Shown piece after piece: positions 28,406 through 62,348 of a DNA stretch of 64,000 bases. The notes beneath the pieces were generated by a model, which worked only from the letters and a program-made list of their open reading frames with translations, had not been told where the DNA came from and did no database searches. The stretch's first letter is position 1; every line of letters begins with the position of its first letter. Source of the DNA: an uncultured delta proteobacterium (lineage in GTDB: Bacteria > Desulfobacterota > Desulfobacteria > Desulfobacterales > B30-G6); NCBI GenBank assembly GCA_963848165.1, contig CAWKCS010000020.1:41180-105179 (forward strand). Reading direction: 5' to 3'. The translations under genes were made by a program, and so were the position numbers.

Positions 28406-28470
28406 GAGCCGTAAGCTGTAAGCCATAAGCTATAAGCTGCTTACGGCTTATAGCTTATAGCTTAGAGCTG
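28406..28470. repeat. AGCT-type palindromic spacer
   Basis: GAGCCGTAAGCTGTAAGCCATAAGCTATAAGCTGCTTACGGCTTATAGCTTATAGCTTAGAGC. Confidence 0.75.
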
Positions 28471-28853
28471 ATCCGCATATGCAGCTTCCGGGTTCGTGGT
28501 CCATCGAATTCACAGAAAAATATTCCCTGCCACGTTCCCAGCACCAGCTGTCCGTTCTCAATGGCAATCATCTCCGAAGCGCCCACCAGTGTTGATTTGA
28601 TATGTGCCGGTGAATTCCCCTCCAGATGACGATAGCCTGCTTTCCAGGGAATGACCTGGTTGAGCACCATCAATATGTCTGATGGGACACTTGGGTCGGC
28701 ACTTTCGTTGATTGTTACCGCGGCAGTGGTGTGAGGGACGTAAAGAAAACAGAATCCATCCTGGATATCATGGGATTGTAGCGCTGTCCTTATCTTGGTG
28801 GTAATATCGATGAGTTCTGTCTGCTGTTTTGTTTTGATAGTCAGGATCATCAC
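28455..28853 (-). CDS. YjbQ/UPF0047 family protein
   Basis: 132 aa with VPHTTAAVTINESADPSV...HLEGNSPAHIKSTLVG...LGTWQGIFFCEFDGPRTR. Confidence 0.75.
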   Translation of the reverse strand: MMILTIKTKQQTELIDITTKIRTALQSHDIQDGFCFLYVPHTTAAVTINESADPSVPSDILMVLNQVIPWKAGYRHLEGNSPAHIKSTLVGASEMIAIENGQLVLGTWQGIFFCEFDGPRTRKLHMRISSKL

Positions 28854-28952: not shown

Positions 28953-29270
28953 TTATACACACCCGGTTGGCTTCGGAAGACCGGCCATCTTACATGCTCC
29001 CTTGCCTGGTCCTGACGGGAAGAGCTCATAGATGTGTTTCAGTTTGAATCCGGTCACTTTTGAAAGAACACGAACCATCGGGGCAATCCCGTTTTTCTCA
29101 TAGTACTCCCTGAGAACCGTGATGACCTTCTGGTGTTCATCATTCAATTCTTCGATACCTTCTTCTTTCTTTACCAACTGAACCCATTCTTGACTCCAGT
29201 TTTCATAGGAATCAATGAATCCATCTTCGTCAACACCAAATGTTTTACCCATAAATTCTACGTCCGGCAT
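28953..29270 (-). CDS. dsrC: DsrC (dissimilatory sulfite reductase gamma/TusE-family sulfur carrier) with both conserved C-terminal cysteines
   Basis: 105 aa ending ...GKGACKMAGLPKPTGCV, the canonical DsrC C-terminal arm. Confidence 0.9.
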   Translation of the reverse strand: MPDVEFMGKTFGVDEDGFIDSYENWSQEWVQLVKKEEGIEELNDEHQKVITVLREYYEKNGIAPMVRVLSKVTGFKLKHIYELFPSGPGKGACKMAGLPKPTGCV

Positions 29271-33020: not shown

Positions 33021-33096
33021 GGATGCTGGGAGGCTATAATGCTTGAAAGCTGTCATCCGCATTTAGCTATCAGCCACCCTCAAACCCTTCCTTTAC
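33021..33096. repeat. composite spacer (AGCT-containing segment plus CCACCCTCAAACCCTTCC tail) between the fusion HdrA and Sec-MvhD genes
   Basis: Read directly: GGATGCTGGGAGGCTATAATGCTTGAAAGCTGTCATCCGCATTTAGCTATCAGCCACCCTCAAACCCTTCC. Confidence 0.6.
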
Positions 33097-36000
33097 ACTG
33101 CCTCATTCATCGCAAATATCTGTGCGAAAATCTGATCGTTGTCAAACCCTTTCAGCTTGATGGCACCGGACCGGCAGGAAGCGACACAAAGACCGCAGCC
33201 TTTACACAGAACCGGATTGATCTTGGCTTTGCCTGCAAAGGGTCCTTCCTCGATAAGCGAGGGCGCCGAATAGGGGCAGATGGAAATGCAGACCTTACAG
33301 GAACTGCAATGCATGGGGACGGTTTCAGCTACGGCACCACTGGTATGAATGGTTTTGCGTGCCAGCAGCGTAACCGCTCTCGATGCTGCCGCTCTCCCCT
33401 GCACGATGGATTCGTCGATGGGTTTGGGATAATGGGCCAGACCACAGAGAAACACACCATCGGTTGAAAACTCCGAGGGACCCAGTTTGGCATGTCTTTC
33501 CACAAAAAAGCCGTCGTCGTTCAGCGGCACCTTGAAAAACTGCGCCAGGGCATCGCCCTTGTTTGGCACTACGGCAGACGCCAGTGTCAGCATGTCGGTG
33601 ACGATTTCCAGTTTTCGTTCCAGCACATGATCCATAACCGTGACGATCAGATCATCACCCTTTATCTCGACCTCGGGTTTGTTTTCCAGGGCGTAGCGGA
33701 TAAAAATAATACCTTTTTCGCGGGCTTCTCTGTAGATATACTCCCGCTCGCCATAGGTCCTGATATCCCGGTAGAGGACATAAACAGTCATTTCCGGGTT
33801 GACTTTTTTCAGTTCCAGCGCATTGTCGATGGCATGGGTACAGCAGACCCTGGAACAGTAAGGTCTTTCCGGCTCTCTTGAACCGACACACTGGATAAAA
33901 ACGGCCGAGGACATTTCCTTGAGCGATGGATCTTGATCCATAAATTTTCGATCGAGATCCAGACTTGTCAAAATTCTTGGGTCATCCCCATAATGATACT
34001 CAGCCGGTTTCAGGGCGGCAGCACCGGTGGCCACCACAGCCACGCCGTATTCCAGGTCCGTTGTGGTGTCTCCGGAAGTGAGGGTGGATTTGAAATTTCC
34101 CACGAACCCGTCTACATTGCTAAGCTCTGTATTCAGGTGCACGTGGACCTTGTCATCCCCCTGGATATCGGAAATGAGTTCCGACAGTTTTTTCTGCACA
34201 TCCTCGCCCGATATGGTTTTAAACAGATTCAGCGCCTGTCCGCCTAGAACATCGCTTTTTTCAATGATATGGGTCTCATAACCCTGCAAACCCAGTGTCT
34301 TGGCAGCACTCATGCCGGCGATGCCGCCGCCGATGACAACAGCTGTCTGGTTTACTTCCAGTTCGGCTTCCTCGAGTGGCTGCATCAGGGCGACTTTGGA
34401 GACCGCCATTCGCACAAGATCTTTGGCTTTTTCCGTGGCCAGATCAGGGTTGTTCTTATGAACCCAGGAGTCCTGATTGCGGATGTTGCACATTTCAAAA
34501 AGGTATTTATTCAGCCCGGCATTGATCAGGGTTTCCTGGAAAAGCGGTTCGTGGGTTTTTGGCGTACAGGCTGCCACCACAATCCTGTTCAAATTTTTCT
34601 GTTTGATGATCTGGGTTATGGTTTCCTGTGTGTCCTGGGCACAGGAGTAGAGGTTGTCCGTGAAATATTCCACATATGGGAGTGTCGCAGCATATTCGCT
34701 TACGGCCGGGACGTCCACAACGCCGGCGATATTGATGCCGCACCGGCAGACAAACACGCCGATTCGCGGTCGTTCCCCGAAGATGTTTGTTTCGGGAATG
34801 ATCTCCGGTATCTGTGTCCGGGTATTCCTGGCCGGGCTCAAGGCCGCACCGGCACTGGCCGCCGCGGCACTGGCATCGATAACCGACTGGGGAATGTCCT
34901 TGGGGCCCTGGAAGGCACCGCACACATAGATGCCTTTGCGCGATGTTTCCACCGGTTCAAACGTCTCGGTTTTACAAAAATTGCCCTCGGTCAGTTCGAT
35001 ACCCAGGTTCTGGGCCAGGGCAATGGTTTTGGGGTCTATCTGCAGCCCGATGGACAGTACGATCTGGTCGAAGGTTTCGGTTTCAAGACCACCGGACTCC
35101 GTAACATAACGGACGGAAAGATCATCGGATCCGTGTACCGGGTCAATGGAGTGGACCCGGCTGCGGACAAATCGCACACCGCTTTCTTTGGCCCTGTTGT
35201 AAAAGCGTTCAAAGTCCTTCCCATGGGTGCGCATGTCCATATAGAAAATGGTGCACTCGAGATCGTCTCCACTGTGCTCCTTGGCAATCACGGCTTCCTT
35301 GATGGCATACATACAGCAGACCGAGGAGCAGTAAGCATTGTCACAGCGGTTGAGATCTCTTGATCCGACGCACTGGAACCAGGCAATTTTTTTGGGCTCC
35401 TTATGGTCGGACATACGGACGAGGTGTCCACCGGTGGGGCCTGAGGCGGACAAAATGCGCTCCATTTCCATGGAGGTGATGACATTGGGGTGCTTGGCGT
35501 AGTTGTAGGAATCAAACTTGGAAGGGTCGAAGGGTTCAAATCCCGGTGCCAGGATAATCGATCCCACATTGAGCTCGACAATTTCATCTTCCATGGTGTA
35601 ATCGATGGCATCCACGCCACAGAATTCAGCACAGACTTTACAACCCCCGGTCTTGAAATGAACGCAGACATCCCGGTCGATTGCCGGTGTGTTAGGAACT
35701 GCCTGTGCATAGGGGACGTAGACCGGTTTGCGGCCCATTAACCCCATGTCATATTCCGATGGAATAGCCTTAACATTTTCCTTGGTTGTAATCAGATTTC
35801 TGACTCTGTCCAGCGTAATATGGCCGGTGGGGCAGACGGATGCACAGGCACCGCATGCCATGCAGATCTCTGTCTGGGTATGGAAGGGCGTGTCGACAGC
35901 GAACTCCAGGCCTCGTCCGGTCAGAGCGATGGCGCTGTTTCCCATCTTTTCGCAGATCCGGGTACAGAGCCCGCAGAGGATGCAGTCGTCATCCTCGGTT

Positions 36001-36350
36001 TTGAAGCGGGGCGCTTCGATACCGTATTTTTTTGCCAGATTCTTCAACAACGGTACTTCCGGGCATCTGGCATACAGCATTTCGACGATCAGTTTGCGTC
36101 CTTCGTGAACGGCCGGTGTATCCGTTTTGACTTCCATTCCTTCCCATATGGGATAGTTGCAGGCGGTCACGAACCGGGTTCTGCGTCCATCAAAGAGTTC
36201 CACCGTGCAGATTCGGCACATGCCGGCCGGTTCCAGGGCCTTGTGATGACAAAGCGTTGGGATGTCGACACCGAATTTTTCGGCTACCTGAAGGATATAT
36301 TGCCCTTCTTCTCCCTGTACTTTTTTCCCATTTAATTTGAAAGTGATCAT
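33093..36350 (-). CDS. fusion protein: NuoG/HydA-type N-terminus (2Fe-2S + 2x4Fe-4S) :: HdrA lacking its first ~120 residues :: complete second HdrA-like unit
   Basis: 1085 aa. Motifs in order: CHHKALEPAGMCRICTVEL; CILCGLCTRICE; CMACGACASVCPTG. Then AIPSEYDMGLMGRKPVYVPYAQAVP...VGSIILAPGFEPFDP...WFQCVGSRD...CCMYAIKEA. Then IGVFVCRCGINIAG...AVVIGGGIAGMSAAK...FIQCVGSRE...CCTHAI...CSSCKVCISICP...CKGCGLCVASC. Confidence 0.85.
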   Translation of the reverse strand: MITFKLNGKKVQGEEGQYILQVAEKFGVDIPTLCHHKALEPAGMCRICTVELFDGRRTRFVTACNYPIWEGMEVKTDTPAVHEGRKLIVEMLYARCPEVPLLKNLAKKYGIEAPRFKTEDDDCILCGLCTRICEKMGNSAIALTGRGLEFAVDTPFHTQTEICMACGACASVCPTGHITLDRVRNLITTKENVKAIPSEYDMGLMGRKPVYVPYAQAVPNTPAIDRDVCVHFKTGGCKVCAEFCGVDAIDYTMEDEIVELNVGSIILAPGFEPFDPSKFDSYNYAKHPNVITSMEMERILSASGPTGGHLVRMSDHKEPKKIAWFQCVGSRDLNRCDNAYCSSVCCMYAIKEAVIAKEHSGDDLECTIFYMDMRTHGKDFERFYNRAKESGVRFVRSRVHSIDPVHGSDDLSVRYVTESGGLETETFDQIVLSIGLQIDPKTIALAQNLGIELTEGNFCKTETFEPVETSRKGIYVCGAFQGPKDIPQSVIDASAAAASAGAALSPARNTRTQIPEIIPETNIFGERPRIGVFVCRCGINIAGVVDVPAVSEYAATLPYVEYFTDNLYSCAQDTQETITQIIKQKNLNRIVVAACTPKTHEPLFQETLINAGLNKYLFEMCNIRNQDSWVHKNNPDLATEKAKDLVRMAVSKVALMQPLEEAELEVNQTAVVIGGGIAGMSAAKTLGLQGYETHIIEKSDVLGGQALNLFKTISGEDVQKKLSELISDIQGDDKVHVHLNTELSNVDGFVGNFKSTLTSGDTTTDLEYGVAVVATGAAALKPAEYHYGDDPRILTSLDLDRKFMDQDPSLKEMSSAVFIQCVGSREPERPYCSRVCCTHAIDNALELKKVNPEMTVYVLYRDIRTYGEREYIYREAREKGIIFIRYALENKPEVEIKGDDLIVTVMDHVLERKLEIVTDMLTLASAVVPNKGDALAQFFKVPLNDDGFFVERHAKLGPSEFSTDGVFLCGLAHYPKPIDESIVQGRAAASRAVTLLARKTIHTSGAVAETVPMHCSSCKVCISICPYSAPSLIEEGPFAGKAKINPVLCKGCGLCVASCRSGAIKLKGFDNDQIFAQIFAMNEAV

Positions 36351-36373
36351 AACAAATAGGTTCCTTGTAAAAT

Positions 36374-38224
36374 CTATCGAATGGCTATTGCATTAAATTT
36401 GCACCCATCATAGCAGATACCGCACTTGATACATTTCTCCTGATCGATAAGATGTGTTTCTTTCTTTTTGCCGGACACAGCATCCTGGGGGCATTTTTTT
36501 GCGCACAGGGTGCAACCCGTACAGGCTTCCTCATCGATCTCATAGTGAAACAATGGTTTACAGACACCTGCAGGGCACTTTTTGTCTCTGATGTGGGCTT
36601 CGTATTCATCCCGGAAGAAGAGAATGTTGGTCAGCACGGGGTTAGGTGCGGACGTGCCGAGCCCGCAAAGGGAAAATTTCTGGAGCATGCTGCCCAGTTC
36701 TTCCAGAAGTTCGATGTCCCCCTCGCGGCCCTCCCCTTTGCAGATCCGCGTCAATACGGCAAGCATCTGCTTGAGCCCTTCCCTGCAGGGATTGCATTGG
36801 CCGCAGGATTCATCTTTCAGAAAATCGACAAAATATCGCGCCACATCGACCATGCAGGTGTCCTGGTCCATGACGATCATACCACCGGAGCCCATTATGG
36901 AGCCCACTTTAGACAGCTCGTCAAAGTCAACCGGGAGGTCCAGGAACTTTTCCGGAATACACCCGCCGGACGGCCCACCCGTCTGAACCGCCTTGAATTT
37001 TTTCTTCTTGGGAATGCCGCCGCCGATGTCGAATATGATCTGACGCAATGTCGTTCCCATGGGCACTTCCACCAGGCCGGTATTGGTGACCTTACCCACC
37101 AGGGAAAATATTTTGGTTCCTTTGCTTCTTTGGGTCCCGATGGCGGCGTACCAGTCTGCCCCCTTGCTGATAATAACAGGAACGTTGGCCCATGTTTCGA
37201 CATTGTTCAGGTTGGTAGGCCCTTGTCGAAAGCCTTTTTCTACCGTGTGCACGTACTTTGCCTTGGGCCGACCCGGTTTTCCTTCGAGGGAGGCCATCAA
37301 TGCTGTGGACTCGCCACAGACAAACGCACCGCCACCCCGGCTGATATGGATGTCGAAATCAAAGCCGGACCCAAGAATGTCGGTACCCAGAAATCCTTTT
37401 TCACGCGCCTTCTCGAGGGCGATGGTCAGGTTGGTAACGGCCAGCGGATATTCATGGCGGACATAAACATATCCTTCGTTGGATCCAATGGCAAAGGCGC
37501 CGATGATCATTCCTTCGATGACACTGTGGGGGTTTCCTTCGAGGATGCTGCGGTCCATGTAGGCTCCGGGATCGCCTTCGTCTGCATTGCAGATGACGTA
37601 CCGTGTACCTTTGTGTTTACGGCAGGTGGCCCATTTGATACCGGTCGGAAAACCACCGCCGCCACGGCCTCTGAGTCCGGAGGCTTTGATCTGGTCGATG
37701 ATGCTTTCCGGGGAAAGGTCAAACAGGGCTTTGGCAAGGGAGGCATAACCGCCAACAGCCAGATAGTGATCCAGGTTTGTGGGATCGATCAATCCATTGT
37801 TGCCGAAAATGATTCTTTCTTGCAGTTTATAGAATGGGATGTCGTGCTCATGGATGATTTTTTTCTTCGTGACTGGATCTTTGAATATCAGGCTGTTAAC
37901 CAGTTCACCCTTTTTCAGGGTTTTTTCGACGATCTCCTTTACATGGTCCACCCTCACCTGGGGGTAAAAGATCCTTTCAGGATGAATCACCATGATGGGA
38001 CCCTTTTCACAGAAACCGTGACAACCGGTAAGTCTGACTTCGACTTCATCCTGCATGCCCTGATCGGTCAGCTCCGCCACCAGCGCCTTATACACGTCGG
38101 CCGTTCCATAGGCGCCGCAGCCCGATCCTGCACAAAGGGAAACAAGCTTTCCGGGCTGCCGATCCTGTTCTTGCAGTTTTTTTCGATAGGTATCTAGCGC
38201 CTCTTTGTTTTTAAATCTTGCCAT
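36374..38224 (-). CDS. NuoF/HydB-like NADH-binding FMN/Fe-S subunit (with N-terminal 2Fe-2S thioredoxin-like and C-terminal 2x4Fe-4S domains)
   Basis: 616 aa with GLRGRGGGGFPTGIKW, CNADEGDPGAYMDR, ESCGQCNPCREG, CTGCTLCAKKCP and CIKCGICYDGC. Confidence 0.9.
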   Translation of the reverse strand: MARFKNKEALDTYRKKLQEQDRQPGKLVSLCAGSGCGAYGTADVYKALVAELTDQGMQDEVEVRLTGCHGFCEKGPIMVIHPERIFYPQVRVDHVKEIVEKTLKKGELVNSLIFKDPVTKKKIIHEHDIPFYKLQERIIFGNNGLIDPTNLDHYLAVGGYASLAKALFDLSPESIIDQIKASGLRGRGGGGFPTGIKWATCRKHKGTRYVICNADEGDPGAYMDRSILEGNPHSVIEGMIIGAFAIGSNEGYVYVRHEYPLAVTNLTIALEKAREKGFLGTDILGSGFDFDIHISRGGGAFVCGESTALMASLEGKPGRPKAKYVHTVEKGFRQGPTNLNNVETWANVPVIISKGADWYAAIGTQRSKGTKIFSLVGKVTNTGLVEVPMGTTLRQIIFDIGGGIPKKKKFKAVQTGGPSGGCIPEKFLDLPVDFDELSKVGSIMGSGGMIVMDQDTCMVDVARYFVDFLKDESCGQCNPCREGLKQMLAVLTRICKGEGREGDIELLEELGSMLQKFSLCGLGTSAPNPVLTNILFFRDEYEAHIRDKKCPAGVCKPLFHYEIDEEACTGCTLCAKKCPQDAVSGKKKETHLIDQEKCIKCGICYDGCKFNAIAIR

Positions 38225-38255
38225 GGTAAAGTATAACCTCCGTTATCCCATGCGG

Positions 38256-38744
38256 TTAAGCTTCCTGCTGCTCGTATTTGTCTAAGATTTCCAATGCACG
38301 CGAACGATCAAGTCCGCCATGGGTATCCTTGTTTACCGTAATTACCGGGCCTGAGGCACAGCACCCGATGCAGCGGACGCCTTCCAGGGTGAAGAGTCCA
38401 TCGCTGCTGGTCTGCCCTTCGGCGATTTTCAGCCGTTCCTCCAGCGCCTCAGTAATTTTTTCAGCACCCCGGACATGGCATGCCGTTCCGGTACAGACAC
38501 TGACAATGTATTTTCCGCGCGGTTCAAGGCTGATGGTTTTGTAAAAAGTGGCGACACTGTAAACCAGACTTTCTTGTATCCCGAGACGTTCGACGAGCAG
38601 GGGAACCACTTCCGGCGGCACGTAATTGTAGATGTCGCTGATGTCCTGCATGATCATCAGGAGTGATTCTTTCTCTTTGCCGTAGTGGTCAATGATGGTG
38701 TTGATTTTATCCCAGTCTATCTCTGCTGAAGTCCTCATAATCAT
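38256..38744 (-). CDS. NuoE/HydC-like 2Fe-2S subunit
   Basis: 162 aa with VSVCTGTACHVRGAEKI...VRCIGCCASGPVITVN. Confidence 0.85.
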   Translation of the reverse strand: MIMRTSAEIDWDKINTIIDHYGKEKESLLMIMQDISDIYNYVPPEVVPLLVERLGIQESLVYSVATFYKTISLEPRGKYIVSVCTGTACHVRGAEKITEALEERLKIAEGQTSSDGLFTLEGVRCIGCCASGPVITVNKDTHGGLDRSRALEILDKYEQQEA

Positions 38745-38831: not shown

Positions 38832-39215
38832 TCAGGAGGCCACCGTCTGTACGACTGGGCAGTTTTCAACACACGCACCACAGCCTGTACAAAGATCCAT
38901 GTTGATGGTTCTTGCACGTTTTCTGACTTTGACCTTGAAATTACCGGGTTCGCCATCTACGGATTCAAGATCTGCATAGGTGATAAGCTCGATGTTTAGA
39001 TGCCGGCCGACCTCGACCAGTACGGGAGAGATAATTCACATCGCGCAGTCGTTGGTTGGGAACGTCTTGTCAAGCTGGGACATTACCCCGCCAATGGAAG
39101 GTGACTTTTCAAGAAGGTAGACGTAGTATCCGGAATTTGCCAAATCAAGGGCAGACTGCATGCCTGCAATGCCCCCGCCGACAACCAGAACCGATCCAAT
39201 GATATCCTTTTCCAT
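38832..39215 (-). CDS. HdrA N-terminal fragment (127 codons) with in-frame UGA (selenocysteine) at 39036-39038
   Basis: AGGAGA RBS then [127 protein letters not shown]. The 67 codons after the TGA, in the same frame, are canonical HdrA sequence. Confidence 0.8.
39036..39038 (-). other. UGA recoded as selenocysteine (HdrA fragment)
   Basis: The TGA replaces the second Cys of the FPTxDCxxC motif. The paralogs at 59192 (TLDCAACI) and 53597 (SNHCGMCK) have Cys. Confidence 0.8.
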
Positions 39216-39380
39216 ATTTTTTCTCCTGGAAATGAATTGTGGTGATAGATTACCTGCCACCCGGTGGACGAAGCAGCCGGGCGGTCAAACAAAGAATTTA
39301 CCTATATGCTGGGTGTGGGCTTGTCAATAGGAATCGAAAAGAAAAAGATGGAAAAATGGGGAGGCGGGATCCTGAGTGTT

Positions 39381-39429
39381 AGATATAAAAACCCCGATGC
39401 GACCGCAGATACATCCAGGTCGCATCGGG
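39381..39429 (-). terminator. rho-independent terminator after the dual-receiver gene
   Basis: On the minus strand: CCCGATGCGACC-13 nt-GGTCGCATCGGG followed by GTTTTTATAT. Confidence 0.75.
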
Positions 39430-39458: not shown

Positions 39459-41123
39459 TCAGGCAGCCAGGAGAAACGCCTTGTCCGTGGCTTCGCGTAT
39501 TTCATCCGGTGTAAAGGGTTTGGGGAGATAATCCACGGCACCCATGCGCGCCGCTGCCACGGCGGTCTCGATGCTGGCATAGCCGGTGATCATGATGACC
39601 TTTGCCTGCGGGTTTTTATCCCGGATGGTCTGCAGCAGCTCGAGTCCTTTGACACCCGGAATCTTGAGGTCGAGGAGTATCAGTTTATACGGATGGGAAG
39701 AGATGCTTTCCAGGGCTTCCTCTTTGGTAACGGCCTGATCGACCTGGTAACCTTTTTTGAGGAGAATTTTACGGATGTTGTTGTTGACCGCCACTTCGTC
39801 GTCAATGACCAGAATGCTTTTTGTACGGGATTCTTTTGGAAATTCATATAGTTTGGCTTTTTTGGATGCCATCTCTTTCATCATCCCGGCAACATTTTGT
39901 TTTAATTCCTCGTAGGGTACCTGCACTTGGCCGTCGTAGCCCATATGTGCAACGAAATCAGGACCGGTAACAGCGGCAACCTCATCGTAGTCAAAGGGTT
40001 GGTCAACGGCAATGAGTGTTTTCACGTCCACAACCGTTTTCATCTTTGCGGCTCTTTTCTTTTTCGCGAGCTGCGGGCATTTCGCCGTTTTCGTGCCTGC
40101 CTTGCATGTGGCGCCCAGTTTCTTAAAGATGTCACACACCATATTGCCGGTTTCACAGAAGCCTTCCAGGGATTCGGAGGCCGTGATTTCAATGATGGGC
40201 ATGTCCGAACGGGAGAACTGATCCGTATAGGCCTCACCAACCTGGGCGGCGACTTCATCCCGGTCAAAGGGGGCGTCCACATCAATTTTGCCTTTTCCCA
40301 GCATCCTGGACACGTTCTTCTTGAGTTCTTCATAGGGGATAAAAGCCACACCTTCGTTATGCAGAGATTGTACATATTCGGGACCGGTCACTGCGGCCAC
40401 TTCCTCGTAATCAAAGGGCTGGTCGATACCGATCAATTGTTTGACATCGGTTCTGCTTTTCTTTTTGGCGGCTCTTTCTTTCTTTGCCAGCTGGGGGCAT
40501 GTTTGGGTTTTTGTGCCGGCTTTGCAGGTTGCGCCCAGTTTTTTGAAAATGTCGCACACCATGTTGCCCATCTCACAAAACCCCACCAGAGGCTCAGGCA
40601 TTTTGACTTCGATGATGGGCATGTCCGAGGGCCCCAGTGATTTGGCATAGGCTTCTCCGGTTACTGCCGCTACTTCATCAATGTCAAAAGGGATGTCGAG
40701 GTCGATGGCATCGATGAATTCTCTTTCCTCAGAGGTGGTAGGGGCTTCCGCGAGTTCTCCGGCCAGGGCTTTTTCAACGGTGGATCGCAGTTCGTCAGGT
40801 GTGAAAGGCTTGGGAATATAATCCAACGCCCCCATTCGAATGGCCTTTACGGCCGTATCGGTGGATGCGTAGGCAGTCATCATCACGGCTTTGGTGAGCG
40901 GCCACTGTTTTTTGACAAGCTTTAAAAGTTCGAGCCCGTTTTTTCCGGGCATGACAATGTCGGATATGAGCAGGGAAAAGGATTCGACAGCCATTTTTTC
41001 CAAGGCCTCATCGGCGGTTGTGGCATGCACGATTTCATAGTGGTTTTTCTTTAAAATTTTTTCCACATTGTTGCAGATGCTTTTTTCATCATCCACGACG
41101 ATGATTTTGGGTGCTGTTTCCAT
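39459..41123 (-). CDS. dual receiver-domain protein with a tandemly duplicated 140-aa Cys4 central module and no recognisable output domain
   Basis: 554 aa. REC1 (IIVVDDE...LLISDIVMPGKNG...MMTAYAS...KPF) and REC2 (ILVIDDE...LILLDLKIPGVKG...MITGYAS...KPF). Between them, residues ~139-278 and ~279-418 are repeats, each carrying PFDxDEVAA...GFCExGNMVCDIFKKLGATCKAGTKTxxCPQLAKK...PFDYxEVAAVTGP. Confidence 0.8.
   Translation of the reverse strand: METAPKIIVVDDEKSICNNVEKILKKNHYEIVHATTADEALEKMAVESFSLLISDIVMPGKNGLELLKLVKKQWPLTKAVMMTAYASTDTAVKAIRMGALDYIPKPFTPDELRSTVEKALAGELAEAPTTSEEREFIDAIDLDIPFDIDEVAAVTGEAYAKSLGPSDMPIIEVKMPEPLVGFCEMGNMVCDIFKKLGATCKAGTKTQTCPQLAKKERAAKKKSRTDVKQLIGIDQPFDYEEVAAVTGPEYVQSLHNEGVAFIPYEELKKNVSRMLGKGKIDVDAPFDRDEVAAQVGEAYTDQFSRSDMPIIEITASESLEGFCETGNMVCDIFKKLGATCKAGTKTAKCPQLAKKKRAAKMKTVVDVKTLIAVDQPFDYDEVAAVTGPDFVAHMGYDGQVQVPYEELKQNVAGMMKEMASKKAKLYEFPKESRTKSILVIDDEVAVNNNIRKILLKKGYQVDQAVTKEEALESISSHPYKLILLDLKIPGVKGLELLQTIRDKNPQAKVIMITGYASIETAVAAARMGAVDYLPKPFTPDEIREATDKAFLLAA
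39870..40709 (-). repeat. intragenic tandem duplication (2 x 420 bp) encoding the Cys4 module
   Basis: The protein repeat period is exactly 140 aa. Antisense track ORFs 40012-40221 and 40441-40650 are also near-duplicates, so the repeat is visible at DNA level. Confidence 0.85.
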
Positions 41124-41183: not shown

Positions 41184-41199
41184 TGCACAAGGCGTGCCA
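41184..41199 (-). promoter_or_regulatory. sigma54 (-24/-12) promoter of the dual-receiver gene
   Basis: The minus strand reads TTGGCACGCCTTGTGCAAT. That is TGGCACG-N4-gTGC, with the GG and GC dinucleotide start positions 12 nt apart as in TGGCACG-N4-TTGC. It lies ~60 nt upstream of the ATG at 41123. Confidence 0.75.
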
Positions 41200-41533
41200 A
41201 AGAAACTAATTATATTAACCTTATTGAATTTATAGCAAATTATTTATTTCAAGCTGCTATGGCCCTTGAAAAACGTATAAATAAAATATACAGTATGTGA
41301 AGAAAAAATCCTGCAAAACAGAATGCTGTGAGGGTTGAATCCAAATATTTTATCCAACATGATTTCCATATGATATTCTGATATTATATAGAAAAGCGAC
41401 AATTTGGAATACGATTGCAAACCAGAAGAAGTACAAAACGTATAAAATAAATATACATGTATAAAAAATCATTGTAGTTCTACAGTTATGTGTTGTCATA
41501 GATATGTTCAGAGTAACCCATGCATGCAGTGAA

Positions 41534-41720
41534 GGGGTATCCATATTTTTTTTAAAAGACATATCAAACCAAGCCTTGCCTTGTGCCCACCGGATTGATG
41601 ATGAAATACGACTGGTTGTTAGTAACATTAGGCAGTCGAAACATCATCAATCCGGCAGGGCACTACGCTAGTGATGCAGATTGATCATGATATGTCTTTT
41701 AAAAAAAATATGGATACCCC
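41534..41720. repeat. 187-bp nested palindrome (perfect 33-bp outer arms, 21-bp inner arms)
   Basis: GGGGTATCCATATTTTTTTTAAAAGACATATCA (41534-41566) is the exact reverse complement of 41688-41720. The inner arms GTGCCCaCCGGATTGATGATG (41583-41603) and CATCATCAATCCGGcaGGGCAC (41642-41663) also pair. Confidence 0.9.
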
Positions 41721-41820: not shown

Positions 41821-43251
41821 TCAGGATTCTTCGCCTTGGGAGCGACCAGGCAGGGTAATTCCGTGTTTTTTCATCAAACTCTGAAAGTTGGTACGTTGAA
41901 GGCCGGTTTTTTCACTGGCATGGGTGACATTCCAGTCGTTGTTTATCAGGGCGTTGAGGATGAAATTTTTTTCAACCGTTTGCACGGCTTTCCGGCGAAT
42001 CTCTTTTTTTATGGACTTGAGTTCTTCGTTGGTGGAGGGGGTGTATTCCACCAGATTTTCCAGATCGCCGAATTCGCCCAGGATCGGTAGCTCCTTGACA
42101 CCAATCATATCCCTGTCGCAGAGAATGATCGCCCGTTCGATCACATTCCGTAGCTGTCTAACATTTCCGGGCCAATCAAATGCAAGCAGGCGGCTGGTGG
42201 CGGCCTCATCGAGACCGCTGATCTCTTTTTTCATGGATTGCCCGAACTGCTTGATGAAATGATAGGCAATGGGGAGGATATCCATTTTTCTTTCCCTTAA
42301 GGGTGGAATGATGATCGGATAGACATAGATGCGATAATAGAAATCTTCCCTGAACGATCCTTCGGACACCATTTCCTCGAGGTGGGTGTTGGTGGCAAAT
42401 ATAAGGCGAACATCCACTTTCTTGGGTGATGTCCCGCCCAGAGGCAGAAATTCACGTGTTTCCAGGAACCGGAGGAGTTTTCCCTGGACCTCCATGCTGA
42501 TGTTGCTGATTTCATCCAGGAAAACAGTTCCCTTGTCCGCCAGTGAGAAAATACCGTCCTTTTGCCGATGGGCACCGGTAAAGGCGCCCTTGGTATGACC
42601 GAAGAGCTCATTCTCGAGAAGATTTCCGGACAGGGTGCCGCAATCCACCGCAAAGAATACATTTGATTTCCGTTTGCTGTTTGCATGGACTGCTCTGGAA
42701 ATCAGCTCTTTTCCGGTACCGCTTTCGCCTGTTACCAGAACCGTGGCATCTGTAGGTGCTACCTTTTCGACCATGGAGATGACTTTCCTTATCTTAGGGC
42801 TGCTGCCGATGAGCTGGTGGGAGGTGATTTTTTTTTGACCAATCTGGTTTTGCAGATTCCGGTTTTGCTGCTGTTGTTCCATATCTGTCAAGGCCTGGTG
42901 TACAACTGCCCTGAGTTCGTGGGGTGTAAAGGGTTTGGGGAGATAATCATAGGCCCCCATCTTCATGACTTCCACGGCCGAGGCTACGCTGGCATACCCG
43001 GTGATAACGATGACATGGGTATCGGGATAGGTTTCCTTGACCCTGTAAAGAAGCTCCATGCCACCCAGGCGGCTCATCTTGAGGTCGGTGACGATGATAC
43101 AAAACGGCTCATCCGCCATCATTTTCAATGCATCATATCCATTGAGTGCGTACTGGACATGATGGCCCTGTTTGGAGAGGATTTTGACACAGCTTTGGCA
43201 GATGTTGGGTTCATCGTCAACAATGAGGATCCGCCGCTGTTCAGTGTTCAT
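41821..43251 (-). CDS. sigma54-dependent response regulator (NtrC family: REC, AAA+, Fis-type HTH)
   Basis: MNTEQRRILIVDDE...IIVTDLKMSRLGG; Walker A GESGTGKE; sigma54-contact GAFTGA; C-terminal HTH WNVTHASEKTGLQRTNFQSLMKKHGI. The start at 43251 overlaps the kinase stop (ATGAACACTGA). Confidence 0.9.
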   Translation of the reverse strand: MNTEQRRILIVDDEPNICQSCVKILSKQGHHVQYALNGYDALKMMADEPFCIIVTDLKMSRLGGMELLYRVKETYPDTHVIVITGYASVASAVEVMKMGAYDYLPKPFTPHELRAVVHQALTDMEQQQQNRNLQNQIGQKKITSHQLIGSSPKIRKVISMVEKVAPTDATVLVTGESGTGKELISRAVHANSKRKSNVFFAVDCGTLSGNLLENELFGHTKGAFTGAHRQKDGIFSLADKGTVFLDEISNISMEVQGKLLRFLETREFLPLGGTSPKKVDVRLIFATNTHLEEMVSEGSFREDFYYRIYVYPIIIPPLRERKMDILPIAYHFIKQFGQSMKKEISGLDEAATSRLLAFDWPGNVRQLRNVIERAIILCDRDMIGVKELPILGEFGDLENLVEYTPSTNEELKSIKKEIRRKAVQTVEKNFILNALINNDWNVTHASEKTGLQRTNFQSLMKKHGITLPGRSQGEES

Positions 43252-44682
43252 AAACCTTGTCCTTTGCCAGGGGGAGCTTGATGGTAAAGGTCGTTCCATG
43301 CCCAAGCCTGCTTTCGGCCCCGATGGATCCGTTGTGTTGTTCGACGATGCCGTGGGTAATGGCCAGTCCGAGACCGCTGCCGTCACTCTTGGTTGTAAAG
43401 AACGGGTCAAAAATTTTTACCAGATTTTCTTCGGCAATACCTTCTCCGCTGTCGGCCACGGACACATGAATTTCACGGTTTTCAGGAACATACCGGGTAA
43501 GGACCCGCACATAACCACCGGCGGCGGTGGCCTCGATGGCGTTGAGTACGAGATTGATGAGGGATTGCTGAATCTGGCCCTTGTCCACGAGAACACGCGG
43601 CAAATTGGGACGCCAGGTCCTGTTCCACGGACACGTCCTTGAAGGCCGCCTGTTTTTTTGTCAGCAGGAGACTTTCCTTGACGATGTCGTTGAGATTGTG
43701 TTCTTTTTTGTCCGGTCTGGTCTGCCGGGCAAAATCGAGCAGGCTGGTGACAATCTTTCTGCATCTCAGGGTTTCTTTGGCAATGGTCTCCAATTCCAGG
43801 TACATGGGGTCTTCGGGTCGGGTCTCTTCCTGGAGCAGCATGGCTGTTGTCAAGATGGTGGTGAGGGGGTTGTTGATTTCGTGGGCGACACCCGCCGAAA
43901 GTCGCCCGATGGATGCCAGCTTTTCCTGCTGCATCATGCTCTTCTGAACGTTGATATCACCGGTGATGTCTCTGGATATCTCCACCACGCCCAGGATATC
44001 GCCGTCTTCGATAAGCGGATAGGTGGAGATGGAGTAGTAGATTTCCTTGTCGTCTTTGTCCAGATGAATGTGGGTGGTCTGGGATGGTTCGATGGTTTCC
44101 ATGGTTTTTAACAAGGGGCAGGGGTGCTTCTCCCCGGAGCATGGAAAGGACTGGCGATGGGTAATTTCGTAGCAGTATTTGCCCACCACTTCTTCTCTTT
44201 TGAGTCCCAGCCGGTTCAGGACGGTATTGTTGACGTCGATGATACGGTAGTCATGCCCGATGACCAGAACATCTTCCTGGATCAGTTCGTTGATCATTGT
44301 TTTGTACAGGGCGTTGGCTTCGTAGAGTTCCTGGCTGGTCTTTTTCTGCATGTTCGACACACGCGCGATTTCCCAGAAAAGCTGTGCGGTTCGAGTTGAT
44401 ATGGCGCGGACGTCCGGTCCCTTTTTTATTCAGGATGTCATAGATAATGTCTGTGTTGCCGGTGAGTTCGATGATAAGCTCGATATCGTCCCGGGAAAAC
44501 AGATCATTGTAGTCGGTGGTGGTGAAGAGACCCTTTTCTTTTGCAAGAAGCATACCCGGGGCATCGGTTTTCAGGTCTGCCACCGCAACGACCCTGGGGT
44601 GTATTTTTTCGAATTGGTGCTGATCGATGAGATTCAATAACTGGGCGCATTTTGTACCACCCCCGACGACGGCTATGTTCAT
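43241..44682 (-). CDS. sensor histidine kinase with N-terminal Rossmann-like domain, PAS, HisKA, HATPase; two apparent frameshifts (about 43607-43609 and 44419-44427)
   Basis: Three overlapping track ORFs tile one protein. First MNIAVVGGGTKCAQLL...ILNKKG | PDVRAISTRTAQLFWEIARVSNMQKK...PAS. Then H-box LSAGVAHEINNPL...VSVEQDLAS | NLPRVLVDKGQIQQSLINLVLNAIEA...DSGEGI...GSGLGL. Confidence 0.8.
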
Positions 44683-46500: not shown

Positions 46501-47661
46501 TCATTGATGACCTGGTCCTTTGGATCCGGGTATCTGCATAGGGATTTTGATGGTAAACCGAGAACCCTGACCCTGGACGGAATCCACGCTGATGGATCCG
46601 CCATGCTGAGCGATGATCTTGTTGGAAAGAAAGAGCCCCAGTCCGGTTCCCTCACGGCCTTTTGAAGAGTAAAAAAGTGAAAAGAGGTTGTCCCGGGTCT
46701 CGAAATCCATTCCGATGCCATTGTCACTGACGATAAAGAAAAGATGTTTTTTGTCATTCTTGACCGAAAACACTATTTTGTGCTTTTTATTCTGGTCGTT
46801 CCTGATACAGGCATCAATGGCATTTTCGAGAATGTTGATGAGGGCGGAGTGGACAAATCCTGCATCGATTTCGATTTTTTCGGCAGAGAAATCGAAATCT
46901 TTTACCAGCGCGATGTTCAGTGTTTTGCTCTTGGGTTCAACGACCCGGATGACATCATTGGCAAAGGTGAGAATGTCGACCTCGTCACGTCTCAGGTTTC
47001 TTTCTTTTGCGTAGAACAGGATGTCGCTCACCATCCGTCGAATCCGCTCCACCATCATTTTGAGAATATCGCTGCCTTCCTCGATCTTCACGAGGTCGTT
47101 GGCCTTCAATCCTGATCCGAGAAGATAGAGACCCCCATCCAGACCGGTCAACAGCCCCTTGATCCCGTGTGAAATAGATCCTACCATAAGACCCAGGTTT
47201 GAGAGATTGTCCTGGAGTTCGGTTTTTTCGCGGATGAGTCGTTCAAGGTTCTCGGTGTATTGCTGGAGTTGTTTGCGGGTGGTAATCTTTTCTTCGACCC
47301 TTTTCAGGGAGATTTCCAGCGCGTCCACATTGATGGGTTTGGTAATAAAATCGGTGGCGCGGTGTTTCAGACTTTTGATGGCCAGGTCCATATCACCATG
47401 ACCGGTGATCATGATGACTTCCGCTTCGGGATTTTCACGCTTGATTCGTTGCAGGAGCTCGATGCCATCCATGACGGGCATTTTGATATCGGTCAGGACA
47501 ATGGGGGGCATCTCCGACAGGAAGGTTTTCCATGCTGTTTCACCATTACCGGCTGTCAATACCTGATATCCCATGTCCGACAAGGTCATGCCGAGGACAT
47601 CACGGATGTCTTCTTCGTCGTCCACCAGGAGAATTTTTTTCTTGTCTTGGGATGGATTCAT
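46501..47661 (-). CDS. receiver-histidine kinase fusion (REC, HisKA-like, HATPase)
   Basis: 386 aa with ILLVDDEEDIRD...IVLTDIKMPVMDG...MITGHGD; H-box region VGSISHGIKGLLTGL; ATPase boxes NILENAIDA, DNGIGMD, GTGLGL. Confidence 0.85.
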   Translation of the reverse strand: MNPSQDKKKILLVDDEEDIRDVLGMTLSDMGYQVLTAGNGETAWKTFLSEMPPIVLTDIKMPVMDGIELLQRIKRENPEAEVIMITGHGDMDLAIKSLKHRATDFITKPINVDALEISLKRVEEKITTRKQLQQYTENLERLIREKTELQDNLSNLGLMVGSISHGIKGLLTGLDGGLYLLGSGLKANDLVKIEEGSDILKMMVERIRRMVSDILFYAKERNLRRDEVDILTFANDVIRVVEPKSKTLNIALVKDFDFSAEKIEIDAGFVHSALINILENAIDACIRNDQNKKHKIVFSVKNDKKHLFFIVSDNGIGMDFETRDNLFSLFYSSKGREGTGLGLFLSNKIIAQHGGSISVDSVQGQGSRFTIKIPMQIPGSKGPGHQ

Positions 47662-47839: not shown

Positions 47840-50107
47840 TTATTTTGGTACCGGAAACGACACAATAAAGCAGGTGCCCTGGTCCTTGTTGGGCAGGACC
47901 TCGATCATTCCCCCACAATCTTTGACAATGCCGTAGCTAATGGAAAGGCCTAAACCGGTACCCTTACCGACTTCCTTGGTGGTGAAAAATGGTTCGAAAA
48001 TCTTGTCTGCAACATGTTTTGGCATGCCGATGCCCGTGTCGCAGACCTCGGCGATGACCCGTCCGCCTTCCGTGTAGGTTCGGAGCGTAATGCGTTCTTC
48101 ATGACTGGTACGGCCGGCAGCCATTTTCTCCTCGATGGCATCCCTGGCATTGAGCAGGAGATTGATGATTACCTGTTCAAGGCGATCCGGGTCGGCATGG
48201 ATCTTGGGTAAGGTCTGGCTCATATCCCTGACCACCGCAATCCCTCTGACTTTCAGCTGCTGGCTGAAAATCTCGAATGCATTCACGAGGACGTCGTTGA
48301 TGGATATTTTCTCCATTGCCATGTCTGTTTTCCTGGCAAACTGCCGCATGTGGTTGATAATCCGGGCAGCCCGGTCGACATTGCTGTCCACTTTCGTCAG
48401 CATGGTATCCAGGATCTCTTTTTTAATGGTTTCGCCGCGGTTGATCTTCTTGATAAAAAAGCTACTGGCCGTCTTGATGACGGACAGGGGTTGATTCAGT
48501 TCGTGGGCAACGCCTGTGGCCATCTCGCCCAGTGTGGCCATTTTGCTGGCCTGGATTAGCTGTTGTTCCGCCTCAAGGCGTTTGGTGATGTCACTTGTGG
48601 TGACCAGGAGAACTTCTTGTCCGGAATATTCGGAGAGGGATACGCGAATATTGACATAAAGTTCCTTGCCGGTTTTTGTCAGATGTCTGGCCTGGTTAAT
48701 GATGGTATCTGTCTTTAGCCTAACGGCGTAGGTGTCCTTTTCTTCTTTACGGAACAGGTTCAGAAAGGAACTATTGATAAGGTCGCCGGTTGTAAATCCA
48801 TATACCGATTCTGCACTCATGTTACAGTCCAGGATCGTGAGGGTCTGGATGTCGAGTACAAATACTGGATTGGGTATGTTGCTGAAGATAGCATGATATT
48901 TCTTTTCCGACTTTTCCAGATCGACTTCGAGTTGCCGCCGTTCTGAAATATCGTGAGAGATTTCCATGGCGGCAACAACCTCGCCTTTATCGTTGACAAT
49001 GGGCGAGGTCCAGACGATCCAGTGTTTGATGCTGCCGTCCTTGTCGACACCGGTCTCTTCGGTTGAGTAAGATTTACCATCGGCAAATGTCCATTCGACC
49101 GGACAGCGCTCACACTTTTCCGAGCGGCCTTTGTAGGCGTGGTAGCAGAAATCCCCGGGAACGGGGTCGAAACGATTCGAAAACTCTTTATTATAACGCA
49201 GCAGCTTGAAATTTCGATTCTGGACGGTAATGATACAGGGTACCTGTTCAAACAGCTGCATATATTCATCCCGCTGCTTGTTGAGAGCTGTTTCATGCTC
49301 GGCGATTTCGGATCCCATTTTATCGATGGCATCCCCTAACTGCCCCATTTCGTCCTTCTGTGAAAGATGGGCTTTCCTGCCATAGTCACCCTTTGCAATA
49401 TCCCGGGTTCGGGTGATAAGTTTTTTGACGGGACGGTTGACAAACCGGAACACAAAGAAACAGATAATCGTAGACGTGAGAAGAAAAACGGAGATGGACA
49501 TGCCGATGATACCCCGTTGGAGTTGATACAGGCCTTTGTCTGTTTCTTTCAGAGAGACTACCAGGTCCAGGGCACCGAGAATTTTCTTTCCCTGGGGGTG
49601 AACATGACAGTCGTCGGTTGAACAACCCGGTTCGTTGCGGATAGGACTGATGATGCCGAGGAGTCGATATCCCCCGGCATGGTTGAAGATACGCGTTCTT
49701 TCATTCAGGGCGAGTTCGGAAAGGGGTGGTTCCGACCGGTGGCAGATGTCGCAGGCTTCGGCCTTGATGTTCGTGGACAGATCGACCTCGGATGGTCGGT
49801 TGGAAAATTTGATTTCCCCTGCTTTATTGTATATTCGGATATTCTCTATTTCAGGAAGCTGTCCGATGTTCATGATGATCTGGTTGATGTCGTCCCTGGA
49901 ATTGAGCATCATGGCGTAATGGGTTCCTAGCCGGATAGTGGTGGTAAGCCTGTCGGTGGTTCCCACAATATTTTGCATTTCTTTTTCCTTCTGATAGCGT
50001 ACATTAATGTAGGTCCAGATTGAAAAAGAAACGAGGAAGACAAGCCCCACGGTTAGCACAATTTTGGAGACAAGCCGGCTACGTATTTTGTTGAATAACG
50101 TCATCAT
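47840..50107 (-). CDS. sensor histidine kinase (periplasmic domain with CXXCH motif, HAMP, 2 PAS, HisKA, HATPase)
   Basis: TM1 at residues 15-35. The periplasmic region contains EACDICHRS and [10 protein letters not shown], followed by TM2/HAMP. H-box [13 protein letters not shown]; DTGIGMP; GTGLGL. Start is placed at MMTLFNK (50107), 7 nt after the upstream stop. Confidence 0.85.
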
Positions 50108-50114
50108 GAGCGGT

Positions 50115-61690: not shown

Positions 61691-62110
61691 TTATACATGC
61701 CCCAGAGCGGACAGCTCTTGGACCGTCGTCAGCAGAATCTCGGCTTCGACCGGTTTTTCCATGAACGTATCGATCAATTCATGGGGCTTCACATTGCCTG
61801 TAAGCCATACAGGTTATGGCATTTCAGAAATGTGTCTTTATCTAAGGTAGAGAGCATGATGACCGGTATCCGACTGAGGGTTTCGTCCTGCTTGAGGCTG
61901 TTGATACAGGCGGATGCCGCTTTCTCCCGGCATCATCATGTTGAGGATGATAACGGAAGGGTGTTCTGCGGCAGCCTTTTTGAGCCCATCTGCTTTATTG
62001 CTCGCCGTAAGCGGATGAAACCCGCTGGCGTTCAAAAGATTGAAAAGGAAAATTCTGGTGTCCGGTTCATCGTCCACCACAAGTATTTTTTTTACTGTTT
62101 CTGCAGACAC
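61691..62110 (-). CDS. single-domain CheY-like receiver; two apparent frameshifts (about 61896-61897 and 61797-61798)
   Basis: MSAETVKKILVVDDEPDTRIFL...VIILNMMMPGESGIRLYQQ | LKQDETLSRIPVIMLSTLDKDTFLKCHNLYGLQ | GNVKPHELIDTFMEKPVEAEILLTTVQELSALGHV*. The three frames tile a normal REC fold. Confidence 0.7.
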
Positions 62111-62332: not shown

Positions 62333-62348
62333 AGCATAGAGCGTGCCA
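62333..62348 (-). promoter_or_regulatory. sigma54 (-24/-12) promoter of redox/signalling operon B
   Basis: The minus strand reads CTTGGCACGCTCTATGCTAA. That is TGGCACG-N4-aTGCT with correct GG/GC spacing. It lies ~210 nt upstream of the CheY-like start. Confidence 0.75.

Follow-up and report, generated by a model that had tools for sequence, protein, structure and literature searches.

What can a response regulator do that carries receiver domains at both of its ends and, between them, a duplicated four-cysteine region? This question is raised by a 554-aa protein, here called the dual-REC protein after its receiver (REC) domains, whose gene lies in a 64,000-nt stretch of DNA from an uncultured delta proteobacterium of the Desulfobacterales (contig CAWKCS010000020.1 of assembly GCA_963848165.1, positions 41,180 to 105,179 of the forward strand). 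The whole stretch is referred to below as the window, and all coordinates are given within it. The dual-REC protein is a response regulator with an undescribed output region, and probably an undescribed kind of redox-linked regulator; the family to which it belongs is real, but narrow and uncharacterised. Its members are conserved among marine sulfate reducers, beside operons that serve the balance between NADH and ferredoxin. The gene and its parts are listed below, with Cys4 denoting a four-cysteine motif.

39459..41123, minus strand: gene for the dual-REC protein (REC, module 1, module 2, REC; 554 aa)
40764..41108, minus strand: receiver domain 1 (residues about 6-120; D11, D12, D55, T83 and K105; PF00072)
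40290..40709, minus strand: repeat copy 1 (residues 139-278), comprising acidic box A, a Cys4 hairpin, a Lys-rich tract and acidic box B
40494..40577, minus strand: Cys4 motif 1 (C183, C190, C200 and C209-P210)
39870..40289, minus strand: repeat copy 2 (residues 279-418), its parts arranged as in copy 1
40074..40157, minus strand: Cys4 motif 2 (C323, C330, C340 and C349-P350)
39468..39818, minus strand: receiver domain 2 (residues about 436-552; D441, D442, D485, T513 and K535; PF00072)

The open reading frame (ORF) is intact, with an ATG start and an AGGAGG box 7 nt 5' of it, and its length matches that of the orthologs (554-558 aa). The identical 554-aa sequence is also present, unnamed, in a public protein collection. 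Pfam reports two Response_reg (PF00072) stretches (E 4.8e-59, 197.8 bits versus a cut-off of 30.2), the best at residues 437-545 and the other at about 6-120. A sequence-only reading of this locus had described both receivers as intact, and the comparison with homologs agrees: the catalytic DD pair, the phospho-acceptor D, the T and the K of both domains are kept across the family, each in at least 95% of the aligned homologs. AlphaFold models both receivers in (beta-alpha)5 order with a predicted local distance difference test score (pLDDT) of about 85-94. According to NCBIfam, they match best the NtrC, AtoC and ZraR-type receiver models, with partial, REC-level matches far below the cut-offs (for example, 172 bits versus the 559 needed), and the NtrC-type matches cover model positions 1-134 only. 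Within the window, the REC domain of the adjoining NtrC-type activator is 43-44% identical to REC1 and REC2, compared with 26-41% for the other window RECs. No match to the AAA+ domain Sigma54_activat (PF00158), however, is reported by Pfam in the 554-aa protein, and its C-terminus is the second REC, not a Fis-type helix-turn-helix (HTH), with no HTH_8 match in Pfam. Judged by its sequence, the protein is not an NtrC-type activator, having neither AAA+ nor HTH.

The centre of the protein is dominated by a repeat. In a self-comparison the offset of 140 aa stands out with 107 identities, in comparison with at most 47 at other offsets, and in the DNA this offset equals 420 nt. The copies at residues 139-278 and 279-418 have 65% protein identity, 64% DNA identity, and 39% identity at third codon positions; as far as sequence can tell, the repeat is an ancient duplication under purifying selection. 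Tandem Repeats Finder is blind to it because the duplication is old and kept by selection: no array is reported in the DNA, and the repeat is seen at the protein level only. Each copy starts with box A (xIDxDxPFDxxEVAxxxGxxY...SDMP, net charge about -6), which is followed, after a short spacer, by the Cys4 segment GFCExGNMVCDIFKKLGATCKAGTKTxxCP, i.e., C-x6-C-x9-C-x8-C-P. A Lys/Arg tract (+6 charge) comes next, and box B (LIxxDQPFDYxEVAAVTGPxxV...PYEELK, net charge about -6) completes the copy. The boxes are about 30 aa long, acidic and helical, with net charges ranging from -5 to -7, and the Cys4 segment and basic tract together bring about +8 net charge per repeat, while the protein as a whole is acidic (isoelectric point, pI, 5.3). 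Thus, the centre is largely non-globular and of low complexity, with alternating charge blocks. The earlier description of this layout, with receivers flanking two copies that each hold C-x6-C-x9-C-x8-C, two PFDxxEV boxes and a Lys/Arg stretch, is accurate. As for the period of exactly 140 aa, it holds for this protein and its close relatives, and gives way in other homologs to a distance between Cys motifs of about 136-151 aa.

A search with the central 297 aa yields 581 protein clusters, whose best names are 'response regulator' or 'CheY-like'. Cysteine motifs were counted in 188 module instances from 120 retrieved clusters of these 581. The spacing C-x6-C-x9-C-x8-C is identical in 185 of the 188, and in the 69-sequence module alignment A2 the four Cys, the next Pro, and several Gly and Lys are invariant. 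Homologs without conserved cysteines, named by the sequence-only reading as evidence against itself, are thus not what these module instances show. Members with one module (about 414 aa) and with two (about 554 aa) both occur in the family. Modules within one protein are 63% alike, compared with 56% for module 1 versus module 2 of another protein; this greater within-protein likeness suggests, at the sequence level, either co-evolution or repeated duplication. Among 185,579 species, each represented by a single genome, 159 loci are found, and the named taxa among them are all of the Desulfobacterales type (Desulfosarcina, Desulfatitalea, Desulfococcus, Desulfonema, and Desulfatibacillum), including one cultured isolate, Desulfatitalea alkaliphila M08but (locus L050). 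When 1.84 billion representative proteins were searched exhaustively with a profile, only 68 clusters matched. No description of this protein family was found in the literature, and the paper on the D. vulgaris sigma54 regulome does not mention it. The label 'flavodoxin' given by the Joint Genome Institute (JGI) to some homologs is not supported by the Pfam and NCBIfam searches and may stem from the flavodoxin-like fold of REC domains.

Regarding known folds, Pfam reports nothing significant between the receivers; the sub-threshold matches (TrkA_N, TusA, KH_9, Mss4, RELT, and PDE8A_N) were rejected as REC look-alikes or insignificant. Searches of the PDB with residues 139-278, by phmmer and two profile searches, give no match below E 0.2, and the chance matches at E 0.24-1.9 (a chlorophyll-binding protein and a small terminase) were discarded. 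Foldseek with the module model reports 0 PDB matches at E <= 10, which is a weak negative owing to the low confidence of that model (pLDDT 68, predicted template modelling score, pTM, 0.29). The Fer4 clan has no match in the protein even at E <= 1, and the 6/9/8 spacing differs from CxxCxxCxxxCP, the terminal C-P alone being alike. As for a zinc ribbon, there is no CxxC anywhere in the centre and no Pfam zf match. The claim that the protein has no known output domain therefore stands: Pfam, NCBIfam, the sequence and profile searches of the PDB, and Foldseek are all without a match beyond the receivers, and no characterised domain was found to match the centre, such a match being the other outcome that the sequence-only reading had named as counting against it.

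The idea that the 140-aa module is a single domain did not survive. AlphaFold2 gives the centre of the full protein (82 aligned sequences) a pLDDT of only 40-60. In the model of the module alone (69 sequences, with the pLDDT and pTM given above), confidence is restricted to the boxes (about 80-86, two short helices) and the C-terminal helix; with low confidence, C183 and C190 are placed on a shared face of one helix (i, i+7) and C209 where the following helix begins. Moreover, the parts occur separately in other proteins, and the module is a string of separable parts (boxes, Cys4 hairpin, and basic tract), not one folded domain. Distant relatives of about 390 aa have the order REC, box A, Cys4, basic tract, box A, REC. 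All four Cys are kept in them, with a last loop of 3, 4 or 6 residues (e.g., YCxxGxRxCKRFxxxGxCxxxCP). Across relatives this loop is x3, x4, x6 or x8, and the motif always ends with C-P or C-hydrophobic plus basic residues; fixed cysteines with a variable last loop are a sequence pattern typical of ligand loops. Stand-alone proteins of about 110 aa have either two boxes A without the Cys motif (P0187-P0207) or Cys4, the basic tract and one box (P0176, P0182, and P0185). P0125 combines one Cys4 with three boxes B, and the number of boxes varies from 1 to 4 per protein (P0125 and P0129). The Lys-rich tract and box B are also found at the N-terminus of Cys-rich GcvH-like proteins (Pfam GCV_H; P0159, P0162-P0164, and P0174). 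A few distant dual-REC relatives, such as P0181, have boxes and lack the Cys.

The window has a GcvH-like gene of its own at 62828-63875 (plus strand), with two Cys-rich motifs C-x12-C-x5-C-x2-C and a frameshift split near 63228-63241. This copy has the Lys-rich start and no box, whereas its homologs P0159, P0163, P0164, and P0174 have both the tract and box B.

Where the boxes come from can be addressed by profile comparison. Box A is homologous to box B (hhalign probability 98%). In all four box-versus-REC comparisons with hhalign, the best local match is the beta5-alpha5 segment of the receiver (DY[IL]PKPFTPDE[IL]R), the best of these having a probability of 50% and a pairwise E of 1.6e-4. 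Comparing residues 139-170 with 97-120 and 529-552 sets xDxDxPFDxDEV against xDYxPKPFTPDEL. On this weak evidence, the boxes may be remnants left by partial duplication of a REC, derived from the beta5-alpha5 element.

As for the control of the gene, the relevant elements are as follows.

41184..41199, minus strand: sigma54-type -24/-12 promoter TGGCACGCCTTGTGCA (TGGCAC-N5-GTGCA), 61 nt upstream of the ATG
41275..41292, minus strand: proximal enhancer-like palindrome TGTATA-N7-TATAC
41440..41457, minus strand: distal enhancer-like palindrome TGTATA-N7-TATAC
39387..39429, minus strand: intrinsic terminator with 12-bp GC-rich arms and T5, directly 3' of the stop codon

The promoter TGGCACGCCTTGTGCA fits the sigma54 consensus (-24 GG and -12 GC with 10-nt spacing). 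Of 80 orthologous loci, 75 have a counterpart of it 60-112 nt ahead of the start codon, compared with none of the 63 spacers downstream of the gene; the earlier claim of an own sigma54 promoter is thus supported. The enhancer-like sequence TGTATA-N7-TATAC has 2 matches in the window with 0 expected, and these form the direct repeat D1, 165 nt apart. The perfect form TGTATA-N7-TATACA is found in 32 of the 80 loci, often twice, and the related ATACACTGTAT in 34. From their sequence, the palindromes are predicted to be typical enhancer sites for the adjoining NtrC-type activator. On the other side of the gene, the terminator hairpin (39393-39429) has a folding energy of -33.7 kcal/mol (z = -3.75); a simple terminator scanner missed the 39387..39429 element, probably since the hairpin misfits its short-loop model. 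A hairpin of -10 kcal/mol or stronger with a T-run follows the gene in 43 of 63 loci, with unrelated sequences, which bears out the own terminator as well. Having its own sigma54 promoter and its own terminator, the gene is a monocistronic sigma54 unit.

Two further elements were noted. Between the activator stop codon and the enhancer sites lies a 187-nt element (41534-41720) whose inverted arms, 33 nt each and perfect (41534-41566 and 41688-41720), enclose a second perfect pair of 14 nt (41590-41603 and 41642-41655); the element could be an insertion resembling a miniature inverted-repeat transposable element (MITE) or a large terminator. A second good sigma54-type element, TGGCACGCTCTATGCT, is located at 62333-62348 (minus strand), about 220 nt ahead of a short, apparently truncated ORF (61838-62110) that consists of a REC alone.

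Upstream of the gene lie the likely signalling partners.

41821..43248, minus strand: NtrC-type enhancer-binding response regulator (REC, Sigma54_activat, AAA_lid)
43241..44360, minus strand: PAS-HisKA-HATPase sensor kinase in two overlapping ORFs of different frames

The NtrC-type protein is probably the activator of the sigma54 promoter. The kinase consists of a PAS-HisKA ORF (43482-44360) and a HATPase ORF (43241-43603), which form one frame in orthologs such as L002; the split is an indel error or a pseudogene, and other split genes in the window hint at assembly indels. Its PAS domain contains CYEITHRQSFPCSGEKHPCP (44115-44174, minus strand), i.e., C-x10-C-x6-C-P with flanking His, and the three Cys are kept in 58 of 58 orthologs. 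OrpR, an activator of a sigma54 system, senses redox potential via a PAS-bound [4Fe-4S] cluster on three Cys, which resembles the three-cysteine motif of this kinase PAS (PMC8359166). By this analogy, a redox or metal input via the kinase PAS cysteines seems plausible.

The target side of the locus comprises the following features.

39318..39329, minus strand: conserved TATTGACAAGCC, the -35-like TTGACA box in the downstream operon's own promoter
38832..39215, minus strand: N-terminal fragment of HdrA (127 aa), first gene of the downstream operon, with an in-frame TGA at codon 60
33093..38744, minus strand: NuoE-like gene, NuoF-like gene, and a 1085-aa Fer2/Fer4/Pyr_redox_2 fusion

The gene order kinase, activator, dual-REC gene, HdrA fragment, NuoE, NuoF, and the 1085-aa fusion is shared by nearly all loci that have sufficient sequence, and the dual-REC gene stands upstream of hdrA-nuoEF in about 57 loci. 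Its place after the kinase/NtrC pair and before the HdrA-NuoEF operon, pointed out by the sequence-only reading, is therefore conserved. In the window the operon continues with MvhD-like, Fer4, FAD/NAD-binding, DsrC-like, and UPF0047 genes, the last two of which (28953-29270 and 28455-28853, both minus strand) form the distal end of the same-strand string. The sequence indicates that this operon has its own conserved non-sigma54 promoter: TTGACAA is present in 57 of the 64 spacers between the dual-REC gene and the downstream operon, and the hdrA-type spacers conserve only the -35-like TTGACAAG box, a TATA-like box, and the TTTGGTTTA start region. The predicted fold of the operon's 5' leader is not better than that of shuffled sequence (z = +0.42), and Rfam reports no match for the whole window.

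The HdrA fragment needs a comment of its own. Its TGA follows FPTNDCAM and is found at this codon in 64 of 64 orthologous loci, with a conserved in-frame continuation, so it probably encodes selenocysteine (Sec). The 'split' of HdrA in the earlier reading is thus in part probably recoding. A 67-nt stretch over the TGA and just downstream folds no better than shuffled sequence, with no structure like a selenocysteine insertion sequence (SECIS) evident in it. In Desulfococcus multivorans, a Sec-containing HdrA1 was detected on some substrates only (PMC5109826). This suggests regulation of such an operon in that organism.

The link is, however, not specific to Hdr: in 7 loci the same cassette precedes rnfCDGEAB. 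Five of these rnf-type loci (L025, L029, L039, L043, and L063) encode the two-module protein and two (L089 and L090) the one-module protein; L089 (8650-16100) also has an NfnAB-like pair divergently upstream of the cassette. The rnf spacers share a conserved TTGTTGCA...TATATTTTTACATA motif of their own, and no operator common to hdrA-type and rnf-type spacers is recognisable. What the loci have in common is that the operon encodes an NADH/ferredoxin-converting complex that includes a NuoF/RnfC-type flavoprotein.

Elsewhere in the window, a 1160-aa ORF (50115-53597, minus strand) combines Fer4, an internal REC (residues 192-301), and HdrA-like Pyr_redox_2/FAD parts in an unusual REC-in-Hdr fusion. 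It adjoins a HAMP-PAS kinase (47840-50179) and a REC-HATPase protein (46501-47661). A receiver inside an HdrA-like enzyme suggests, by analogy, that in this organism such enzymes can be under direct control by phospho-signalling.

Based on these observations, we tentatively propose that the dual-REC protein may be a phospho- and thiol/metal-gated adaptor linking the two-component system to NADH/ferredoxin oxidoreductase operons. Its output, under this still doubtful proposal, would be protein-protein binding, not catalysis and not a classical DNA-binding fold. The metal, Fe-S or thiol chemistry and the hub or scaffold role put forward by the sequence-only reading are likewise putative. The kinase would phosphorylate the NtrC-type activator, and the dual-REC gene would be induced as a result. 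The newly made protein would then accept phosphoryl groups on one or both receivers, most simply from the same kinase, because, within the window, its RECs are the ones most closely related to the activator REC. Each Cys4 site would either hold a metal centre (Fe-S or Zn) or cycle between thiols and disulfides, so that its conformation reports the redox state of the cytoplasm. In the permissive state the acidic boxes would be exposed and dock on a conserved partner, with NuoF/RnfC-type flavoprotein complexes, the kinase/activator pair, and RNA polymerase as candidates, and the docking would tune the expression or the activity of the adjoining NADH/ferredoxin module. Such an adaptor is favoured because the boxes behave as portable docking units, because the centre is largely non-globular with alternating charge in an acidic protein (pI 5.3), and because a nearly invariant Cys4 segment (at least 95% conserved) is accompanied by no common DNA motif. 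The lack of a motif shared by the hdrA and rnf spacers argues against a sequence-specific DNA reader.

Several points weigh against the adaptor. The Cys region has a pLDDT of about 50-60, and convergence of the four Cys is thus unsupported despite 69-82 aligned sequences. Relatives without Cys (P0181 and the stand-alone two-box proteins) mean that the cysteines are dispensable for box function. The neighbourhoods of distant and stand-alone relatives are short contigs or have no recurrent neighbour, and hence name no partner. The Lys-rich tract would suit nucleic-acid binding equally well. Finally, the cofactor, the partner, and the phosphotransfer, and with them every functional step, are inferred.

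Among the alternatives, it is unlikely, though worth weighing, that the protein is instead a nucleic-acid-binding regulator. In this case Cys4 would be a structural Zn (or Fe-S) knuckle that, together with the Lys tract, binds the DNA of the downstream promoter or else acts as an antiterminator by binding RNA, at the terminator of the gene itself or in the long 5' leader; phosphorylation of the receivers would control the binding, and the protein would be the transcription factor of the hdrA-nuoEF or rnf operon. The dual-REC gene indeed directly precedes the target operon, in the same orientation, wherever a locus offers enough sequence, and the charge of about +8 per repeat in Cys4 and the basic tract would fit such a role. 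The centre, however, is unlike any DNA- or RNA-binding family and has no CxxC knuckles, and the basic blocks of this protein of pI 5.3 are flanked by blocks of about -6. The conserved downstream promoter is not sigma54-dependent and so needs another regulator, but the hdrA-type and rnf-type spacers have no common operator-like motif despite the nearly invariant Cys4. Similarly, the strong terminator and 110-240-nt leader with hairpins that separate both units count in favour, while the leader fold (z = +0.42 versus shuffled) and the empty Rfam result speak against the RNA version.

A phosphate sink providing negative feedback is another explanation that we consider improbable. Once induced, the dual-REC protein would compete for the phosphoryl groups of the kinase or bind the activator, and thereby damp the response; the centre would serve mainly as a spacer or for metal-bridged dimerisation, and read-through of the terminator would induce the downstream operon. 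That the sole sigma54 promoter of the neighbourhood drives the dual-REC gene agrees with this, as does the fact that both receivers are intact and are the nearest relatives in the window of the activator REC (43-44% versus 26-41%). The trio of kinase, activator, and response regulator is also steadier than the downstream operon, which is hdrA-type or rnf-type, and the likeness of the boxes to REC beta5-alpha5 (probability 50%, E 1.6e-4) is compatible with contacts of the REC-REC type. A plain sink, however, has no need for a 300-aa centre in which purifying selection is strong and each repeat keeps four invariant Cys, and it explains neither the stand-alone box proteins and box-GcvH fusions nor the strict adjacency to NADH/ferredoxin operons. 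Read-through, in turn, would have to overcome a strong terminator (-33.7 kcal/mol, T5) ahead of an operon with its own conserved promoter. As for an assembly duplication or a decaying gene, the kinase and GcvH-like genes of the window are each split into two overlapping frames, and another assembly has a split version of the same protein (cluster members of 140 aa and 407 aa). Against this, the ORF is intact and of ortholog length (554-558 aa), 36% of the nucleotides, predominantly third codon positions, differ between its copies, and hundreds of homologs have the two-copy architecture; such an artefact or pseudogene is scarcely conceivable, being effectively refuted by the homolog architecture, the 159 loci, the synteny, and the divergence of the copies. 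Whatever probability the adaptor and its rivals leave belongs to mechanisms not yet imagined.

The adaptor can also be worded more boldly, in a form that is a long shot. The centre would consist of two new elements, namely a redox-active or metal-binding Cys4 helix-loop-helix (C-x6-C-x8/9-C-x3-8-C-P) with its Lys tract, and a portable acidic 'DVDxPF' docking box of about 30 aa, possibly derived from REC beta5-alpha5, which together would make a new output class of response regulators. A sigma54-induced, doubly phosphorylatable scaffold would then sense redox via Cys4, dock on NuoF/RnfC-type complexes or GcvH-like carriers, and switch electron bifurcation or Rnf post-translationally in marine sulfate reducers.

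Desulfobacterales account for much of the carbon mineralisation in marine sediments. To our knowledge, how they control the NADH/ferredoxin balance via Rnf, Nfn, and HdrA-NuoEF-type bifurcating complexes is essentially unknown. The conserved and dedicated cassette that stands directly before these operons, and leads from a Cys-rich PAS kinase through a sigma54 activator to a dual-REC Cys4 protein, offers a testable entry to this regulation, and the homolog in the cultured isolate Desulfatitalea alkaliphila M08but makes experiments feasible. Two-component signalling, for its part, gains an output region without a known fold and a short portable box that is found both in stand-alone proteins and on GcvH-like proteins.

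In comparison with known systems, the Cys4 region recalls the CHCH Cx9C proteins, which form twin-Cys helical hairpins: it is likewise modelled as a helix-loop-helix with paired Cys and could bind metal or form disulfides. The spacing, the cellular location, and the sequence context differ, however, and the low-confidence model does not indicate homology. The NtrC family resembles the dual-REC protein in its receivers, which score best against the NtrC, AtoC, and ZraR models; its members, however, have Sigma54_activat AAA+ and HTH_8, whereas the dual-REC protein has neither and appears to be a sigma54 target, not an activator. With the Fe-S sensors OrpR, NreB, and FNR it shares a few conserved Cys in a signalling protein of an anaerobe. 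Its Cys4 is not in a PAS fold, unlike the site of OrpR, and the spacing of 6/9/8 (6/8-9/3-6 in relatives) fits no described cluster motif. ZraP for ZraSR and PspA for PspF are sigma54-induced feedback modulators. Like them, the dual-REC gene appears to be a local sigma54 target of a kinase/activator pair whose product may act back on the system, although ZraP and PspA are not response regulators and have no sequence features in common with it. FrzZ, of the Frz chemosensory pathway in Myxococcus xanthus, consists of two CheY-like receivers joined by a short non-enzymatic linker, and thus also has two receivers in one polypeptide with no DNA-binding or catalytic output, presumably acting through protein contacts. 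The FrzZ linker, however, is short, without Cys4, Lys tract or repeated boxes, and FrzZ is not induced by sigma54 beside redox operons. By analogy, then, the nearest architectural analogue appears to be a dual receiver of the FrzZ type, and the nearest functional analogies would be the Fe-S sensors OrpR, NreB, and FNR and the feedback modulators ZraP and PspA.

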